In this document: piece after piece, positions 29,267-39,189 of the stretch
How positions within the stretch are numbered: the stretch's first letter is position 1
Layout of the letters: every line of letters begins with the position of its first letter
The notes under the pieces: generated by a model
Told to the model about the DNA's origin: nothing
What the model saw: only the letters and a program-made list of their open reading frames with translations
The model's database searches: none
Source: Minisyncoccota bacterium
Lineage (GTDB): Bacteria > Patescibacteriota > Minisyncoccia > Phycocordibacterales > UBA2135
Length of the DNA: 39,189 bases
Direction: 5' to 3'
NCBI GenBank assembly: GCA_040879685.1
Contig: JBBDJW010000002.1
Coordinates: 1 to 39,189 of the forward strand
Program-made: the position numbers and the translations under genes

Positions 29267-29647
29267 ATGCGAGAAATTAAGGAAAAAAGAAAGTGGCGAA
29301 TGAGGCTTTTTTCTCGTATAACCATCGCTGGTCTCCTCTTTTTTTTACTCTTTATCGCACATGCGACATGGGGCGTCTTTGGAAAATTTTTAGAGACACA
29401 GAGAAACAAGATACGTGCGCAAGAAAATGTTGCTGAACTCTTAAAGCGCGAGGCAGTGCTTGTCGGTGAGATAGAGTATTTAAAAACAACGCGCGGAGTA
29501 GAAGAAGAGATTCGTGAAAACTTTGGCTTTGCAAAAGAGGGTGAAGGGGTGGTGATTATTGTTCGCGACAAAGGAAGGGATACTTCAGAGAAAACCTCGC
29601 AGGGCGGTTTTTGGACACGTATACAGAGGTTCTTTTTAAGAGAGTGA
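29267..29647 (+). CDS. Septum formation initiator (FtsB/DivIC-like) protein
   Basis: N-terminal TM helix, a coiled coil, and the conserved YIEEIAR-like segment (TTRGVEEEIRENFGFAKEGE). Confidence 0.75.
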   Translation: MREIKEKRKWRMRLFSRITIAGLLFFLLFIAHATWGVFGKFLETQRNKIRAQENVAELLKREAVLVGEIEYLKTTRGVEEEIRENFGFAKEGEGVVIIVRDKGRDTSEKTSQGGFWTRIQRFFLRE

Positions 29648-29651
29648 GCAA

Positions 29652-29725
29652 GCGAGATTAGTTTAATGGTAAAATGATTGCTTCCCAAGCAATAGACACG
29701 AGTTCGATTCTCGTATCTCGCACCA
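29652..29725 (+). tRNA. tRNA-Gly (anticodon CCC), CCA encoded
   Basis: GCGAGAT TA GTTT AATGGTA AAAT G ATTGC TTCCCAA GCAAT AGAC ACGAG TTCGATT CTCGT ATCTCGC A CCA. Confidence 0.9.
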
Positions 29726-29766
29726 CACACCACACATATCTTTCAATGCCTTTGTTGGTGTGGGGG

Positions 29767-29888
29767 CAAGCAGTAGACATTCCCGCCACAAGCGCGGGTC
29801 GGGTAGCTCAGATATTTTCGGATCCCGAGCTTGTCGAGGGAGAATGAAAATATTGAGCGAAGCTGACCGATTCTCGCTGGCCGCACCA
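29767..29888 (+). other. tRNA-Gly-derived mosaic: a 3'-half-like copy interrupted by an 88-nt structured insert
   Basis: CAAGCAGTAGACA (29767-29779) matches tRNA-Gly 29686-29698 at 12 of 13 positions. CGATTCTCG (29868-29876) and CGCACCA (29882-29888) match the tRNA-Gly 3' end. The insert contains GGTAGCTCAG and a long hairpin at 29806-29858. Confidence 0.45.
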
Positions 29889-29940
29889 GAGCGAGAAGTG
29901 TGCTATACTAAGGCTATTGTAAGGTAATTTCAAAAAAGGT

Positions 29941-30180
29941 ATGGCAAAAGTGACTATTTACTCAACTCCTACCTGCGGCTTCTGCAAAGCGGCAAAGGAT
30001 TTTTTTGGCGAAAAAGGAGTAGAGTATGAAGATTTTGATGTCTCTACTAATGCGGAAAAAAGGCAGGAAATGATTGAAAAAAGCGGTCAGATGGGCGTTC
30101 CGGTTATTACTGTCGGCGATGAGATAATGGTTGGCTTTGACAAGAACAAGGTCTCAAACCTTCTTGGGCTTTCCGCATAG
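29941..30180 (+). CDS. Glutaredoxin-like (NrdH/Grx family) small redoxin
   Basis: 79 aa with a CGFC active site and the GVPVI motif of the thioredoxin fold. Confidence 0.85.
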   Translation: MAKVTIYSTPTCGFCKAAKDFFGEKGVEYEDFDVSTNAEKRQEMIEKSGQMGVPVITVGDEIMVGFDKNKVSNLLGLSA

Positions 30181-30205
30181 ATTCTCATTCCACTATTCCA
30201 CAATA

Positions 30206-30249
30206 CTTTAACAATCTCATCCCGCCAAGGCGGGATGAGATTGTTAAAG
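30206..30249 (+). terminator. Long perfect stem-loop after the glutaredoxin gene
   Basis: CTTTAACAATCTCATCCCGCC / GGCGGGATGAGATTGTTAAAG with 21-nt arms. There is no clear T-run. Confidence 0.55.
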
Positions 30250-30283
30250 AAATATGGTTATATGTGGTTATATAAAGAGAAGG

Positions 30284-30355
30284 GCCCCCGTAGTTCAATG
30301 GATAGAACAGGCCCGTCCTAAGGGCTCGATGTGGGTTCGATTCCTGCCGGGGGCA
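30284..30355 (+). tRNA. tRNA-Arg (anticodon CCT), no encoded CCA
   Basis: GCCCCCG TA GTTC AATGGATA GAAC A GGCCC GTCCTAA GGGCT CGAT GTGGG TTCGATT CCTGC CGGGGGC A. The T-stem has two G:U pairs. Confidence 0.85.
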
Positions 30356-30703
30356 TCAACCAAAAATACTCACGTTTGCCGTGAGTGTTTTTGATTGGTG
30401 CAGGAATCGAACGGAAGTCTGGGAGGAGACTTCCGCGGGATTTTCCCTGGGAGGAAAATCGATTCCTGCCGGGGGCATCAACCAAAAATACTCACGTTTG
30501 CCGTGAGTGTTTTTGATTGGTGCAGGAATCGAACGGAAGTCTGGGAGGAGACTTCCGCGGGATTTTCCCTGGGAGGAAAATCGATTCCTGCCGGGGGCAT
30601 CAACCAAAAATACTCACGTTTGCCGTGAGTGTTTTTGATTGGTGCAGGAATCGAACGGAAGTCTGGGAGGAGACTTCCGCGGGATTTTCCCTGGGAGGAA
30701 AAT
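30337..30703 (+). repeat. Three perfect tandem copies of a 122-bp unit that begins with the last 19 nt of tRNA-Arg
   Basis: The units start at 30337, 30459 and 30581 and are identical at every base by direct reading. Confidence 0.95.
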
Positions 30704-30748
30704 ATCTATCCAGTTGAAACAAGTATTTTCTTTTGCTACTATAGCGTG

Positions 30749-31033
30749 ATGGATGAGAGAGAGAACAAAGACCTCAAAGCACTTCTAGAAGAGAATACAA
30801 AACTCGCACGCGAGAACCACAGGCTTTTAAAGAAAATACACCGCTCTCAATCATGGGGCAGTTTCTTCCGTCTTCTTTATTGGGCTGTCATTCTCGTATC
30901 TATTTTTGGTGCGTACTATTTCATCCAGCCGTTTATTGATAGTGTGAGGGGAAATGTTGAGAGTGTTCAATCAGGTATTAACACACTTGAGAATATCAAT
31001 AACTTTGATATTAATTCACTTCTCGGTAATTAA
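30749..31033 (+). CDS. Hypothetical small membrane protein with an N-terminal coiled coil
   Basis: The ATG at 30749 (MDERENKDL...) gives 94 aa with one or two TM segments. The upstream part of the 134-aa track ORF is translation of the repeat. Confidence 0.55.
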   Translation: MDERENKDLKALLEENTKLARENHRLLKKIHRSQSWGSFFRLLYWAVILVSIFGAYYFIQPFIDSVRGNVESVQSGINTLENINNFDINSLLGN

Positions 31034-31050
31034 GAGATTCTGATATATAC

Positions 31051-31127
31051 GCCCAGGTAGCTCAGTTGGCTAGAGCATTGGTCTGAAGAACCAAGGGTCG
31101 TCGGTTCGAGCCCGACCCTGGGCACCA
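31051..31127 (+). tRNA. tRNA-Phe (anticodon GAA), CCA encoded
   Basis: GCCCAGG TA GCTC AGTTGGCTA GAGC A TTGGT CTGAAGA ACCAA GGGTC GTCGG TTCGAGC CCGAC CCTGGGC A CCA. Confidence 0.95.
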
Positions 31128-31167
31128 AAACAAAACTTTTCGGAAAAACTTAATAAAATGAATTTGT

Positions 31168-31914
31168 ATGAATGGTCAAGAACAACAACTTACAAAACAA
31201 GAAAAAAGAGAACTAAAACGCCAAGAAAAAGATGCACGGCGCACAAATCAAGAACGAAAGAGAAAGACGCGAAAGTTTTTATCTTGGAGTGCGGGCATTG
31301 CCATGGCCTTTTTGATTATTGGAGGAATAGTTTATCTTATTCAAAATTCAACCCCTACAAACCCCGAGCAGGCCGCTTCGCTTTTAGAGGTTAAGGATAA
31401 TGATTGGACGACAGGAAGTCCCGGCGCCCCAATAACGCTCATTGAATATAGCGACCTCCAGTGTCCCGCTTGTGGCGCGTACCATCCTATTCTTAAGCAG
31501 CTGATTGAAGAATTTGGCAGTGATATTACTTTTGTGTACCGGCATTTTCCGTTGAGACAAATTCATCCCAATGCCGACTTGGCTGCGCGAGCCACTGAAG
31601 CCGCAGGAGCGCAAGGCAAATTCTGGGAAATGCATGACATGCTTTTTGAAAATCAACGCTCGTGGTCAAATGATAGAGACACAAAAGAGTTATTTGTGAG
31701 CTACGCAGAATCATTAGGCTTGGGCGTGGATCAATTCAAAAGCGATCTCGCATCAAAAGGAGTCAAAGCAAAAGTGGATGCGAACTACAAGAGCGGGCTC
31801 GGCTTAGGGGTTAATGCCACGCCAACCTTTTTCCTCAACGGACAAAAACTGCAAAACCCCAGAAGCCATGAAGAATTTAAGACCATTATTCAAAATGCCA
31901 TATCTCAACCATGA
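31168..31914 (+). CDS. Membrane-anchored DsbA-family thiol:disulfide oxidoreductase
   Basis: A basic N-terminus, a TM helix, and a thioredoxin fold with a CPAC active site. Confidence 0.85.
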   Translation: MNGQEQQLTKQEKRELKRQEKDARRTNQERKRKTRKFLSWSAGIAMAFLIIGGIVYLIQNSTPTNPEQAASLLEVKDNDWTTGSPGAPITLIEYSDLQCPACGAYHPILKQLIEEFGSDITFVYRHFPLRQIHPNADLAARATEAAGAQGKFWEMHDMLFENQRSWSNDRDTKELFVSYAESLGLGVDQFKSDLASKGVKAKVDANYKSGLGLGVNATPTFFLNGQKLQNPRSHEEFKTIIQNAISQP

Positions 31915-38469: not shown

Positions 38470-39153
38470 CTAGTTTTTAAGGTCAAGGACAGAGTGTGTT
38501 TTCTTGTGAGCAAGAAAAAAAGCGGCGAGAATCGTGCCAACAAAGTTAAAGACAAGGTCAAGCGCAGTGTTTTCATAACCACCGACATTCGTGGAGGGGA
38601 GAAGTACCGTCATAAAAAATTCAATAATTTCATTTAACGCACCAAGCCCAAGCCCTGCCATAGCAACGACGATACCCACACCAAGAAAGCTTGAAGGTTT
38701 TTTTAAATGCGGATATAAGACCGAATACATAACAAGTGTTGCAACAAAGAAGCCGAAGGCGTGGATAATTTGATCATATTTTAAAATGAGGTATGGTTCT
38801 GCTACAAAGGGAATAAGAATAAGTGTATAGATAACATTACCATCTGCCATCTCTACGCCGCCAAGCATATGGAAGAAACTCCACACAAAAAGTCCCCAAA
38901 GCACAAAGTTTGGGTAGCGTACGAATTTATTTGAAAAGAGAACGGCAAAAAGAAGGAGAAGAACAATGGCAACATAGCCAATGAACTCAAAGTTTTGCTG
39001 TGCAATAAAGATTGTCGTAAAAACAAGAAGCGAAGCAACAAAACTCCATAGTATTTTTTTTTGACTCGGATGGATGTACATACTTGTATACGTATAGAGT
39101 ATGGTATATACAAAATAGTTTTTAGCAAGAGGGATGGGACTTAATTTTCTCAT
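38470..39153 (-). CDS. Polytopic membrane protein (possibly DUF2238/YjdF-like)
   Basis: 227 aa with about 6 TM segments and the motif NEIIEF...GGYENTALDL. The family assignment is tentative. Confidence 0.6.
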   Translation of the reverse strand: MRKLSPIPLAKNYFVYTILYTYTSMYIHPSQKKILWSFVASLLVFTTIFIAQQNFEFIGYVAIVLLLLFAVLFSNKFVRYPNFVLWGLFVWSFFHMLGGVEMADGNVIYTLILIPFVAEPYLILKYDQIIHAFGFFVATLVMYSVLYPHLKKPSSFLGVGIVVAMAGLGLGALNEIIEFFMTVLLPSTNVGGYENTALDLVFNFVGTILAAFFLAHKKTHSVLDLKN

Positions 39154-39189
39154 GGAAAATTCCGGGGAAGTCTCCTCCCAGACTTCCCT
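39154..39189 (-). repeat. Diverged inverted copy of the hairpin module of the tRNA-Arg repeat, truncated by the window edge
   Basis: GGAAGTCTCCTCCCAGACTTCC (39166-39187) is the exact reverse complement of GGAAGTCTGGGAGGAGACTTCC at 30413-30434. The adjacent GGAAAAT also matches the unit. Confidence 0.85.

Follow-up and report, generated by a model that had tools for sequence, protein, structure and literature searches.

The tyrT repeat of Escherichia coli, later named RtT, was reportedly described decades ago and is said to have remained an isolated curiosity. To our knowledge, RtT has no accepted function. A second point of reference is provided by the islands that tyrosine integrases place in tRNA genes, which are marked by a regenerated tRNA and a displaced 3' fragment (Islander, PMC4383910). 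We analyzed a 39,189-nt stretch of DNA from a Minisyncoccota (Patescibacteria) genome, referred to here as the window, in which a tRNA-Arg(CCT) gene is followed by a tandem array. Like RtT, this array lies directly behind its tRNA gene in the same orientation, and its units begin with the last 19 nt of the tRNA, as was verified for RtT units in the E. coli reference. In our judgment, the array probably represents a dispersed tRNA-tail cassette that is non-autonomous and has been amplified to three tandem copies by recombination between the copies of the tRNA 3' end (A) that it contains.

The tRNA-Arg(CCT) gene and its array

The features of the window are as follows.

29726-29888, + strand: probable old degenerate cassette behind tRNA-Gly(CCC) (repeat search; sequence)
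30284-30355, + strand: tRNA-Arg(CCT) (ARAGORN; Rfam tRNA model, 57.3 bits)
30337-30703, + strand: tandem array, 3.0 x 122 bp, 100% identity (Tandem Repeats Finder; repeat search)
30337-30355, also 30459-30477 and 30581-30599, + strand: A, tRNA 3' end TCGATTCCTGCCGGGGGCA (pattern search)
30359-30399, repeated at +122 and +244, both strands: t, an A-run, a 7-bp GC-rich hairpin, and a T-run (terminator-like scan, folds, sequence)
30400-30412, also 30522-30534 and 30644-30656, + strand: A', inverted T-loop/T-stem copy GCAGGAATCGAAC (inverted-repeat search; P1 of covariance model R1)
30413-30434, repeated at +122 and +244, + strand: hp2, 8-bp stem GGAAGTCT-GGGAGG-AGACTTCC (sequence, fold, homolog alignment)
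30440-30459, repeated at +122 and +244, + strand: hp3, 7-bp stem ATTTTCC-CTGGGA-GGAAAAT (sequence, inverted-repeat search, homolog alignment)
30400-30469, also 30522-30591 and 30644-30714, + strand: full core A'-hp2-hp3-A, predicted three-way junction (cmsearch, model R1)
30703-30714, + strand: degenerate terminal copy of A, TATCTATCCAGT versus TCGATTCCTG.. (the third R1 match extends across it)
30714-30742, + strand: promoter-like site TTGAAA-17-TACTAT with TG, outside the cassette and marking its right limit (promoter-like scan)
30749-31033, + strand: gene for a 94-aa membrane protein, no Pfam family (ORF list, Pfam, synteny in relatives)
39134-39189, - strand: second copy of the core, in inverse orientation, cut by the window end (sequence; R1 match)

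As the preliminary description had stated, three perfect 122-bp units occupy 30337-30703. Tandem Repeats Finder returned a period of 122, 100% matches, zero indels, and 3.0 copies, the last being the number assembled from short reads, which cannot fix it; the unit starts (30337-30458, 30459-30580, and 30581-30702) were confirmed by the repeat search at 100% each. Because the units are 100% identical, their comparison carries no information on selection. ARAGORN and Rfam placed the tRNA at 30284-30355, so the 19-mer TCGATTCCTGCCGGGGGCA is exactly its last 19 nt, again in agreement with the preliminary description; it has three exact matches in the window versus 0.01 expected. This segment covers the 3' part of the T-loop, the 3' strand of the T-stem, the 3' strand of the acceptor stem, and the discriminator, and CCA is not encoded in the gene. 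The A copies at 30337, 30459, and 30581, together with the degenerate copy at 30703-30714, form direct repeats of the type seen at inserts. Read by eye from a short alignment to A, the stretch at 30703-30714 is probably what remains of the original tRNA tail after displacement and decay. No unique spacers separate the repeats, since whole 122-bp units are identical, and the earlier statement that the array is not CRISPR-like holds.

As read from the sequence, the cassette follows the plan A-t-A'-X-A, in which A is the tRNA 3' end, t a hairpin, A' an inverted T-arm, and X a two-hairpin core, with a non-coding insert of 103 nt. The four sub-structures noted earlier (the ACTCACG hairpin, the inverted T-arm copy, the 8-bp stem, and the 7-bp stem) were all located. 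The ACTCACG/CGTGAGT hairpin, flanked by an A-run and a T-run, lies at 30368-30386, 30490-30508, and 30612-30630; a consensus scan listed it three times as terminator-like on the - strand, and on the + strand the same stem is followed by GTTTTTGATT. The t segment reads as a putative intrinsic terminator on either strand. The 13-nt A' at 30400-30412 was 100% complementary to 30335-30347 in the repeat search. In the predicted structures, A' can pair leftward with the preceding A, forming a long hairpin that spans t, or rightward with the next A, forming helix P1; the latter pairing can complete a three-way junction in which the 3' strand of the acceptor stays free. The conserved junction GCGGG (30435-30439) lies immediately 5' of hp3, and compensatory changes among homologs were found in 3 of the 8 pairs of hp2. 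The three window cores scored 87.6, 87.6, and 53.4 bits in the cmsearch with R1. The array region folded far more stably than shuffled sequences (z = -13 and -14 on the two strands), and the minimum-energy fold of a lone unit favored pairing other than the P1/hp2/hp3 model.

Two other readings of the array were rejected. The ORFs listed across it were taken as spurious, because a period of 122 is indivisible by 3 and homologs carry loop indels together with compensatory stem changes. A tRNA-like gene on the minus strand would give a Y-shaped RNA of 75 nt with ACCA at its end; this RNA lacks a T-arm, a D-arm, and an anticodon loop, drew no call from ARAGORN or Rfam, has no promoter-like site, and lies opposite the strand that folds better family-wide. 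An Rfam scan of 29500-31300 at E <= 10 returned three tRNAs only. A Pfam search of 34 window ORFs returned housekeeping families only, with no family of integrases, transposases, recombinases, or RTs among them.

Related cassettes at other tRNA genes

The preliminary description had proposed a search for the unit and its sub-hairpins elsewhere, and this search yielded a second core in the window and homologs at two other loci. The second core (39134-39189) was matched by R1 with 39.8 bits (E = 7e-7), the match being incomplete on the 5' side. Its hp2 is identical at 22 of 22 positions, its hp3 reads ATTTTC-CATGA-GAAAAT, and a different tRNA-like tail, TAAGTCCCATCCCTCTTGC, follows. By these alignments, the same core occurs twice in the genome of the window, beside two different tRNA tails. 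At a tRNA-Arg gene in L041, a homolog of the window core was present as a single copy with 82% identity; at tRNA-Ser(CGA) in L136, the A and A' of the homolog were that tRNA's own sequence. Within the window, 29868-29888 is a 76% copy of the last 21 nt of tRNA-Gly(CCC) according to the repeat search, and GAGGGAGAATGAA behind the same tRNA, read by eye, is a probable degenerate inverted T-arm copy.

The order tRNA-Arg(CCT), small membrane gene, and tRNA-Phe was kept in 35 species representatives, and the 103-nt cassette sequence was absent from all of them. In relatives, only some tens of nt separate tRNA-Arg(CCT) from the membrane gene (37 nt in locus L032), and in some cases the two lie on opposite strands. 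As far as these alignments tell, the orthologous loci are mostly empty or carry other core types (L025, L026, L040, and L054). Because relatives keep the synteny but usually lack the array, the array represents an insertion or expansion. At the same tRNA in L007, a 22-nt tail repeat flanks a 765-nt single-gene insert. Tandem duplications 5' of tRNA-Phe were also observed in the relatives L004, L016, L021, and L032.

Metagenomes were scanned with the pattern T-arm, N40-70, inverted T-arm, and at least 120 loci with the cassette plan were recovered by a main scan that used one T-arm sequence only. Among the matches listed, exactly one arm lay inside the tRNA 3' end in 112 of 120; the last 14 nt of the tRNA recurred as an additional direct copy in 66 of 103 distinct modules, and at least two A' copies were present in 16 of 103. 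Family-wide, among the matches listed, A and A' always read as copies of the local tRNA, and the flanking direct repeat measured 17-25 nt. When 170 unselected tRNAs were inspected, 15 (~9%) had their own 12-nt T-arm repeated in inverted form no more than 160 nt away, against a chance estimate of ~0.06; one example is a tRNA-Leu module with TTCAAATCCTCTC / GAGAGGATTTGAA. Tandem arrays starting within a tRNA 3' end were present in L058 (110 bp x 2.2), L091 (160 x 2.5), L101 (147 x 2.1), L120 (139 x 2.1), and L121 (152 x 3.1). On this evidence, the cassette is one of a family that occurs behind many different tRNAs.

The stems of the core covary across the family. In the window core type, 94.7% of cells were paired versus 29-59% in slid controls, with compensatory change in 8 of 25 pairs. 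In the commonest core type, all five pairs of the P3 hairpin showed compensatory changes, and the junction nucleotides GUACNG and the GUA loop were invariant. MAFFT and RNAalifold recovered P3 alone in this type, the long P2 hairpin appearing in inconsistent registers; because of this misregister, no model was built. In 26 of 34 cores, the + (tRNA) strand gave the more stable fold of the two strands (p = 7e-4). G-U pairs were rare and about equally frequent on both strands, and the P3 stem was Watson-Crick only, a pattern that would fit DNA-level hairpins as well as RNA. Since the core types are alike in architecture and share little sequence, the family is partly a structural grouping.

The module neighbors at 10 other loci were housekeeping genes, and no integrase, transposase, or RT was found by Pfam adjoining the modules there. 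At E <= 0.1, no Rfam family matched on the modules of 20 module-bearing loci. Hammerhead and hairpin ribozymes, whose cores were compared by eye with the commonest core type, were rejected. A sub-threshold Hammerhead_3 match in L090 falls outside the module. In viral contigs, the hp2 sequence had no matches, and the A..A' pattern had none in 2.9 million contigs; the 28 matches to A'..GTACTG were all antisense tRNAs or chance, and none contained the P3 hairpin. These results lend no support to an origin from phage attP. Literature searches turned up no account of modules of this kind from Patescibacteria, and the family is apparently widespread and undescribed.

Origin of the array

The preliminary description had offered three candidates without ranking them. 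One of these, a mini-element that targets tRNA 3' ends and amplifies in tandem, agrees best with the comparative evidence, which includes core homologs at other tRNAs and in other genomes, ends matched to each tRNA, patchy presence, and recurrent arrays of two to three copies. A cassette would have entered the T-loop of tRNA-Arg(CCT), given the gene a new tail, and displaced the old one, which may persist as the degenerate stretch at 30703-30714. One copy could then have become three through unequal recombination or slippage between identical A segments or, alternatively, through repeated insertion at the regenerated T-loop. The cassette would be non-autonomous, its mover being encoded elsewhere or replaced by ordinary recombination or repair. 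If the array is transcribed, tRNA 3'-processing would be expected to treat each A as a pseudo-tRNA 3' end, in the manner of E. coli RtT. Gene conversion from the neighboring tRNA could alternatively keep A and A' matched. We infer the mobility of the cassette only from its patchiness and dispersal; no filled-site/empty-site pair from near-identical strains was seen among the loci compared.

A second candidate, RNAs released by tRNA processing, has a precedent in E. coli rttR, and we regard it as possible though doubtful. The cassette would then be a host-useful, RtT-like RNA produced by read-through of the tRNA, with RNase Z or exonucleases recognizing each A as a pseudo-tRNA 3' end and RNase P recognizing A'/A; structured RNAs of ~115-122 nt would be released as tRNA-like decoys or regulators, and the array would raise their dose. 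Species of ~115-122 nt ending in ...CCGGGGGCA, with or without added CCA, would be expected. The annotated 3' end of rttR (L156 1267) lies exactly 178 nt, one period, past the 3' end of tyrV (1445), and the matches of RF00391, which scores 133-138 bits on the E. coli units, each end where the tRNA-tail copy ends. Many metagenome modules lack a U-tract after the first hairpin and have a strong terminator past the second A (e.g., the tRNA-Glu of L136), which suggests co-transcription, and both the greater stability of the tRNA strand and the invariant GUACNG junction and GUA loop agree with an RNA product. In the window, however, a strong terminator-like hairpin with a T-run opens every unit, so little read-through would be expected. 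The modules are also dispensable, given that they accompany only ~9% of unselected tRNAs and that orthologous loci are mostly empty; the base-pairing pattern suits DNA hairpins equally, and the precedent itself, RtT, is without known function. The third candidate, a regulatory 5' leader of the membrane-protein gene, found no support and is highly improbable. The array does lie directly upstream of this gene on the same strand, but a promoter-like site separates it from the ATG, and three terminator-like hairpins precede the gene. Moreover, relatives keep the gene without the array, some with the tRNA on the opposite strand, and in L041 the tRNA stands between the homologous cassette and the gene.

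An artefact of assembly, in which one or two real units were expanded by an arbitrary traversal of a repeat loop, is unlikely, although the perfect 122-bp period is close to a typical read length, so that short reads cannot count the copies, and neither array-flanking protein had an exact match on record in the public assembly index. Any such loop requires a real unit-to-unit junction, comparable arrays exist in independent assemblies and in the finished E. coli K-12 genome, and the two-A architecture would be real even with one unit. Still less probable is a neutral, one-off duplication of the tRNA tail and an ordinary trailer by slippage. The complete identity of the units indicates that duplication was recent, and the duplications 5' of tRNA-Phe suggest that tRNA borders are prone to duplication in this clade; slippage alone, however, explains neither the internal inverted T-arm copy nor the degenerate terminal A. 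Homologous cores with compensatory changes in L041, L136, and the second window site also argue against it, as does the absence of the 103-nt sequence between tRNA and gene in relatives.

Beyond the favored explanation, a dispersed cassette amplified in tandem, we tentatively suggest that these cassettes may form an undescribed class of non-autonomous mobile elements that, on homing to a tRNA gene at its T-loop, rebuild the target 3' end in both orientations, RtT being a distant relative or a convergent case. Such elements might pass through an intermediate, either RNA or single-stranded, on which RNase P, RNase Z, and the CCA-adding enzyme act; homing through the tRNA-processing machinery would explain both the ends templated by the local tRNA and the tandem pile-up. 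If the recurrence of the RtT architecture behind many tRNA species in Patescibacteria holds, tRNA-tail cassettes are a general genomic phenomenon and not an enterobacterial accident, and comparative data would make it testable how a tRNA 3' end is copied in both orientations and whether the products are selfish DNA, by-products of tRNA processing, or tRNA-like regulators. The cassettes place terminators and long palindromes beside essential tRNA genes in very small genomes, and their pseudo-tRNA tails and perfect repeats may confuse tRNA annotation, island finders based on displaced fragments, and short-read assembly.

Comparison with known systems

Tandem units of structured RNA that can be cleaved to unit length are also found in ToxI repeats (type III antitoxins) and CRISPR arrays. 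The units of the window array, unlike these, begin inside a tRNA gene and have no unique spacers, and no adjoining toxin or cas gene was found; the downstream gene encodes the 94-aa membrane protein without a Pfam match and is conserved in relatives without the array, which does not agree with a type III toxin-antitoxin system. Like MITEs and other miniature elements (REP/BIME, RUP, and Correia), the cassette is small, non-coding, hairpin-rich, dispersed, non-autonomous, and present in several copies per genome. It lacks, however, the fixed terminal inverted repeats and short target duplication of the MITE type: A' is internal, the repeat is a 19-nt tRNA tail, the local tRNA templates both the direct repeat and A', and insertion is limited to tRNA tails.

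As with islands in tRNA genes, the insert rebuilds the tRNA tail and leaves a direct tail repeat downstream, and tandem accretion at a single tRNA is known for islands as well; the L007 insert at tRNA-Arg(CCT), with its 22-nt tail repeat, offers a further parallel. Williams reportedly listed the T-loop in 2002 among the classical crossover sublocations, and the cassette repeat begins in the T-loop. In contrast to islands, the cassette comprises 103 non-coding nt; no integrase was found in the unit itself, elsewhere in the window, or in the neighborhoods sampled. Inside the cassette lie covarying hairpins and an inverted copy of the target, neither of which is required of an att site. The earlier view that the array is not a simple attL/attR scar was right in detail, but the logic of a regenerated tRNA end and a displaced copy still applies.

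The closest architecture is that of RtT. In the E. coli K-12 tyrT-tyrV region, RtT forms an array of 178 bp x 3.1 at 95%, compared with 122 bp x 3.0 in the window. Within each RtT unit, the T-arm region recurs as an inverted copy, GGGGAAGGAT, the counterpart of A' in the window. In the Rfam consensus, this copy pairs with the next tail copy and closes a domain of several hairpins; CCA and the 3' strand of the acceptor stay free. As modeled, RtT and the window array have the same A-t-A'-X-A plan. The two nevertheless differ in their core hairpins and host phylum and show no similarity in sequence or model: RF00391 had no match in 29500-31300 at E <= 10 and none in the 20 module-bearing loci at E <= 0.1. 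A small ORF like tpr of RtT is not conserved in the Patescibacteria modules. Unlike RtT, these modules comprise several core types and accompany many tRNA species, each time with ends that fit the tRNA in question; in Patescibacteria, the RtT-like architecture comes with stem covariation and frequent tandem amplification.

Anatomy and setting of the array

Tandem Repeats Finder resolved the array into 3.0 copies of a 122-bp period with 100% matches, and an independent repeat search returned three unit copies, each at 100%. The repeat and tRNA coordinates agree, indicating that the unit starts exactly with the last 19 nt of tRNA-Arg(CCT). The preliminary description of three perfect 122-bp copies that open on the tRNA tail and carry internal hairpins was borne out. 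On either strand, the array region folded with much greater stability than its shuffled controls (z = -13 and -14). The relevant features are as follows.

30284-30355, +: tRNA-Arg(CCT), called by ARAGORN and the Rfam tRNA model
30337-30703, +: array of three units
A: first part of the unit, 19 nt, TCGATTCCTGCCGGGGGCA; three exact matches in the window versus 0.01 expected
t: A-run, 7-bp hairpin ACTCACG/CGTGAGT and T-run; terminator-like by scan, and a terminator when read either way
A': GCAGGAATCGAAC, 13 nt that repeat the T-loop/T-stem segment in inverted orientation without a mismatch
X: core with hairpin hp2 (GGAAGTCT-GGGAGG-AGACTTCC), junction GCGGG and hairpin hp3 (ATTTTCC-CTGGGA-GGAAAAT)
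30714-30742: promoter-like site TTGAAA-17-TACTAT, between the array and the ATG of the membrane-protein gene

Segment A' has two pairing options. Leftwards, it pairs with the preceding A, which generates the long imperfect hairpin of the preliminary description; rightwards, it pairs with the next A to form helix P1, detected by inverted-repeat search. In the modeled fold, P1 can close a three-way junction with hp2 and hp3 that leaves the acceptor 3' strand single-stranded. The segment TATCTATCCAGT, 3' of the third unit, looks like a decayed A: the third match to R1, a covariance model of this core type, extends across it, and it was aligned to A by eye. The loops of both unit hairpins (30419-30455 and repeats) display CTGGGAGGA, Shine-Dalgarno-like on the + strand and CCUCC on the - strand, found seven times in the window versus 0.16 expected. 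These loops are probably not functional, because they differ at two loci with homologous cores (L041 and L136).

The window is ordinary chromosome of a Paceibacteria-like member of the Patescibacteria, with genes for a Pif1-like helicase, Obg, KsgA, RNase J, GroEL, ribonucleotide reductase, MurJ, LepA, a class I aminoacyl-tRNA synthetase and TsaD, among others; Pfam revealed no integrase, transposase or reverse transcriptase among the window genes. The product of the gene 3' of the array is a membrane protein of 94 aa that falls into no Pfam family. An inverted repeat at 30198-30257 (29-nt arms, 90% complementary, 2-nt loop) separates the glutaredoxin gene from the promoter region of tRNA-Arg; it probably serves as the terminator of the glutaredoxin gene, though it is unusually long. 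The tRNA-Lys(CTT) abutting the window start (1-93, -) is 93 nt long by ARAGORN, unusual for a class I tRNA; either an insertion or an artefact of the window edge may account for this. What appears from its sequence to be a degenerate module (our term, like cassette, for such an element at any tRNA) lies at 29726-29888, 3' of tRNA-Gly(CCC). It contains a 76% copy of the last 21 nt of that tRNA, CGATTCTCGCTGGCCGCACCA, with a different acceptor strand, preceded by tRNA-like pieces (GGTAGCTCAG) and by TGACCGAT, a signature also present in other core types; ARAGORN and Rfam made no call there.

Orthologous loci and homologs of the core

Orthologous loci from 35 species representatives were retrieved with the membrane protein (36-49% identity). 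Both tRNA-Arg(CCT) and tRNA-Phe(GAA) were near the membrane gene in 33 of them; one exception (L024) was without tRNA-Arg, and in the other (L034) the sequence stops before the expected tRNA-Phe. The tRNA-to-gene distance in many of the 35 was a few tens of nt (e.g., 37 nt in L032). The 103-nt non-tRNA part of the unit was absent from all 35 loci, indicating that the array is an insertion or expansion in the lineage of the window.

The tRNA-Arg(CCT) gene is on the same strand as the membrane gene and tRNA-Phe in 19 of the relatives' loci and on the opposite strand in 15, and has been inverted in place repeatedly. In L007 (3139-3903), the tRNA-Arg(CCT) tail is present as a perfect 22-nt repeat on both sides of an insert of about 765 nt. 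This insert, with a single 179-aa ORF that Pfam does not convincingly place in any family, is a gene cassette occupying the same target as the array. Tandem repeats were seen on the 5' side of tRNAs, mostly tRNA-Phe (L016 4267-4418, L032 4312-4431, L004 4578-4715, L021 4457-4592; also L130 and L105), with units of 42-73 bp, each containing the first ~22 nt of the tRNA (acceptor 5' strand and D-arm), often mutated into a hairpin. Judged by sequence, their D-arm-derived TTGGCA/TTGGTA and TATCAT/TAAATA box may act as stacked promoters. On the 3' side of tRNA-Phe, L016 (4463-4627) carries 2.4 diverged units (67-69 bp, 85%), each starting with the last 23 nt of the tRNA including CCA; the tRNA-derived part is perfectly conserved and the spacer drifts.

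BLAST and R1, with sequences of the window, L041 and L136 as its sources, gave four sets of matches to the core.

Window array: three units
L041 (= L119): at tRNA-Arg(CCT), single copy, 82% identity
L136: at tRNA-Ser(CGA), with A' and A that are that tRNA's own
Window 39134-39189, -: R1 39.8 bits, E = 7e-7, cut by the window end

The 39134-39189 copy matches the array hp2 at 22/22 positions; its tail after hp3 differs (TAAGTCCCATCCCTCTTGC) and, by comparison with L136, seems to resemble a tRNA-Ser tail. Just past 39189, the - strand should carry a tRNA gene, possibly for tRNA-Ser. Thus, one core adjoins different tRNA tails in a single genome, and the tails follow the local tRNA. Among the five distinct sequences of the R1 core, 94.7% of cells were paired and 8/25 pairs changed on both sides; slid controls gave 29-59%.

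A family of tRNA-tail modules

Metagenomes were scanned with the pattern TCGATTCCTGC, N40-70, GCAGGAATCGA, yielding at least 120 loci. Among the 120 matches listed, 112 had exactly one arm in a tRNA 3' end and the other outside any tRNA; the tRNAs were Arg (five different anticodons), Lys, Val and Trp. The common plan in these listed matches was tRNA ending in A, hairpin(s), A', a structured core and a second direct copy of A. In 66 of 103 distinct modules, the last 14 nt of the tRNA were present in an extra copy, which takes in the acceptor 3' strand of that same tRNA. As a control for pattern bias, 170 tRNAs with a T-arm unlike the search pattern were examined; in 15 (including Phe, Gly, Ser, Leu, Val, Cys, Pro and Glu), the 12-nt T-arm of the tRNA itself recurred in inverted form in the next 160 nt downstream (chance estimate ~0.06), indicating that the family is not a product of the pattern. 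For example, in the tRNA-Leu of L058 the T-arm TTCAAATCCTCTC has the counterpart GAGAGGATTTGAA. The window cassette belongs to this family, and its ends are locally templated.

By our reading of the loci, at least five core types may be distinguished. The commonest type combines a long hairpin, the junction GUACNG, which is invariant, and a hairpin of 5 bp whose loop is GUA; this 5-bp hairpin shows compensatory changes in 5/5 pairs (AU, CG, UA and GC at one position) and almost no mismatches. In L037 (6454-6800), two modules of different core types stand in series 3' of one tRNA-Phe, the first ending in a tail copy including CCA, an arrangement suggestive of nested or serial use of a single tRNA.

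Tandem arrays starting inside a tRNA 3' end (locus, tRNA, unit and copies, identity)
L058, tRNA-Leu, full 110-bp unit x 2.2, 100%
L091, tRNA-Lys, 160 bp x 2.5, 99%
L101, tRNA-Arg, 147 bp x 2.1, 98%
L120, tRNA-Arg, 139 bp x 2.1, 99%
L121, tRNA-Lys, 152 bp x 3.1, 100%

Among the 103 modules, 16 had at least two copies of A' and three, the window included, had three. Copy number varies between close relatives: one in L059 versus 2.5 in L091, and one in L041 versus three in the window.

Origin of the array and comparison with known systems

We consider it more likely than not that the array is a dispersed, non-autonomous tRNA-tail cassette. One copy would have entered the T-loop of tRNA-Arg(CCT), supplying a new tail and terminator and displacing the old tail, which would since have decayed; the rise from one copy to three could then have come from slippage or recombination between the identical A segments, or from further insertions. 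This account of how the cassette was inserted and amplified is inferred, as is its mobility. Since homologs of the core occur at other places, a one-time neutral duplication is unlikely. The copy number may also be mis-assembled. The preliminary description had further offered a leader for the membrane-protein gene; this is unlikely, as the gene has its own promoter-like site (30714-30742) separating the array from the ATG, and relatives keep the gene without the 103-nt part.

The main rival, to which we give a distinctly smaller chance, is a host-useful RtT-like RNA excised by tRNA-processing enzymes; it is compatible with the cassette reading. The tRNA strand folded more stably than its complement in 26/34 cores (Wilcoxon p = 7e-4), G-U pairs were rare on either strand (about 4%), and the well-resolved hairpin of the commonest core had Watson-Crick pairs only. 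Folding asymmetry and pairing lean towards RNA on the tRNA strand, and DNA-level hairpins are compatible too. In many modules the hairpin behind the tRNA is without a U-tract and a strong terminator follows the second A, which suggests co-transcription with the tRNA. Each window unit begins with a good predicted terminator, which argues against much read-through into the units.

With integrase-type tRNA islands, in which the target is regenerated and a fragment displaced (PMC4383910), the cassettes share a logic that suits the A repeats, and the L007 insert, with its 22-nt tail repeat around 765 nt and a single ORF, lies at the same tRNA. In contrast to such islands, the cassettes have no integrase, neighbor housekeeping genes, and contain hairpins with covarying stems as well as a copy of the target in inverted orientation. 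None of 2.9 million viral contigs had the A..A' pattern. Any recombinase that takes part would be acting in trans.

The closest parallel is RtT (Rfam RF00391), the E. coli trailer repeat RNA. At E. coli K-12 tyrT-tyrV (L156), a 178-bp unit is repeated 3.1 times at 95%; every unit begins with the last 19 nt of tRNA-Tyr and contains the inverted copy GGGGAAGGAT. RF00391 matched four units (133-138 bits), each match ending exactly at the tail-copy end, and its consensus outer helix consists of the inverted copy and the next tail copy, with ..CCACCA left free. The annotated sRNA rttR has its 3' end exactly one period past the tRNA 3' end. The fourth unit lies between tyrT and tyrV (L156 1564-1695), giving the order tRNA-unit-tRNA-unit-unit-unit. 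The window cassette has this architecture, but Rfam scans gave no RF00391 match at 29500-31300 of the window or on modules of 20 other loci; it is therefore RtT-like but outside the family, and by analogy would work like RtT without sequence membership. We found no description of such modules in Patescibacteria in the literature and no matching Rfam family. The RtT-type trailer repeat containing a tRNA tail is already known from E. coli; what is new is how widely such repeats occur, that both their ends are templated locally, how diverse the cores are and that amplification recurs.
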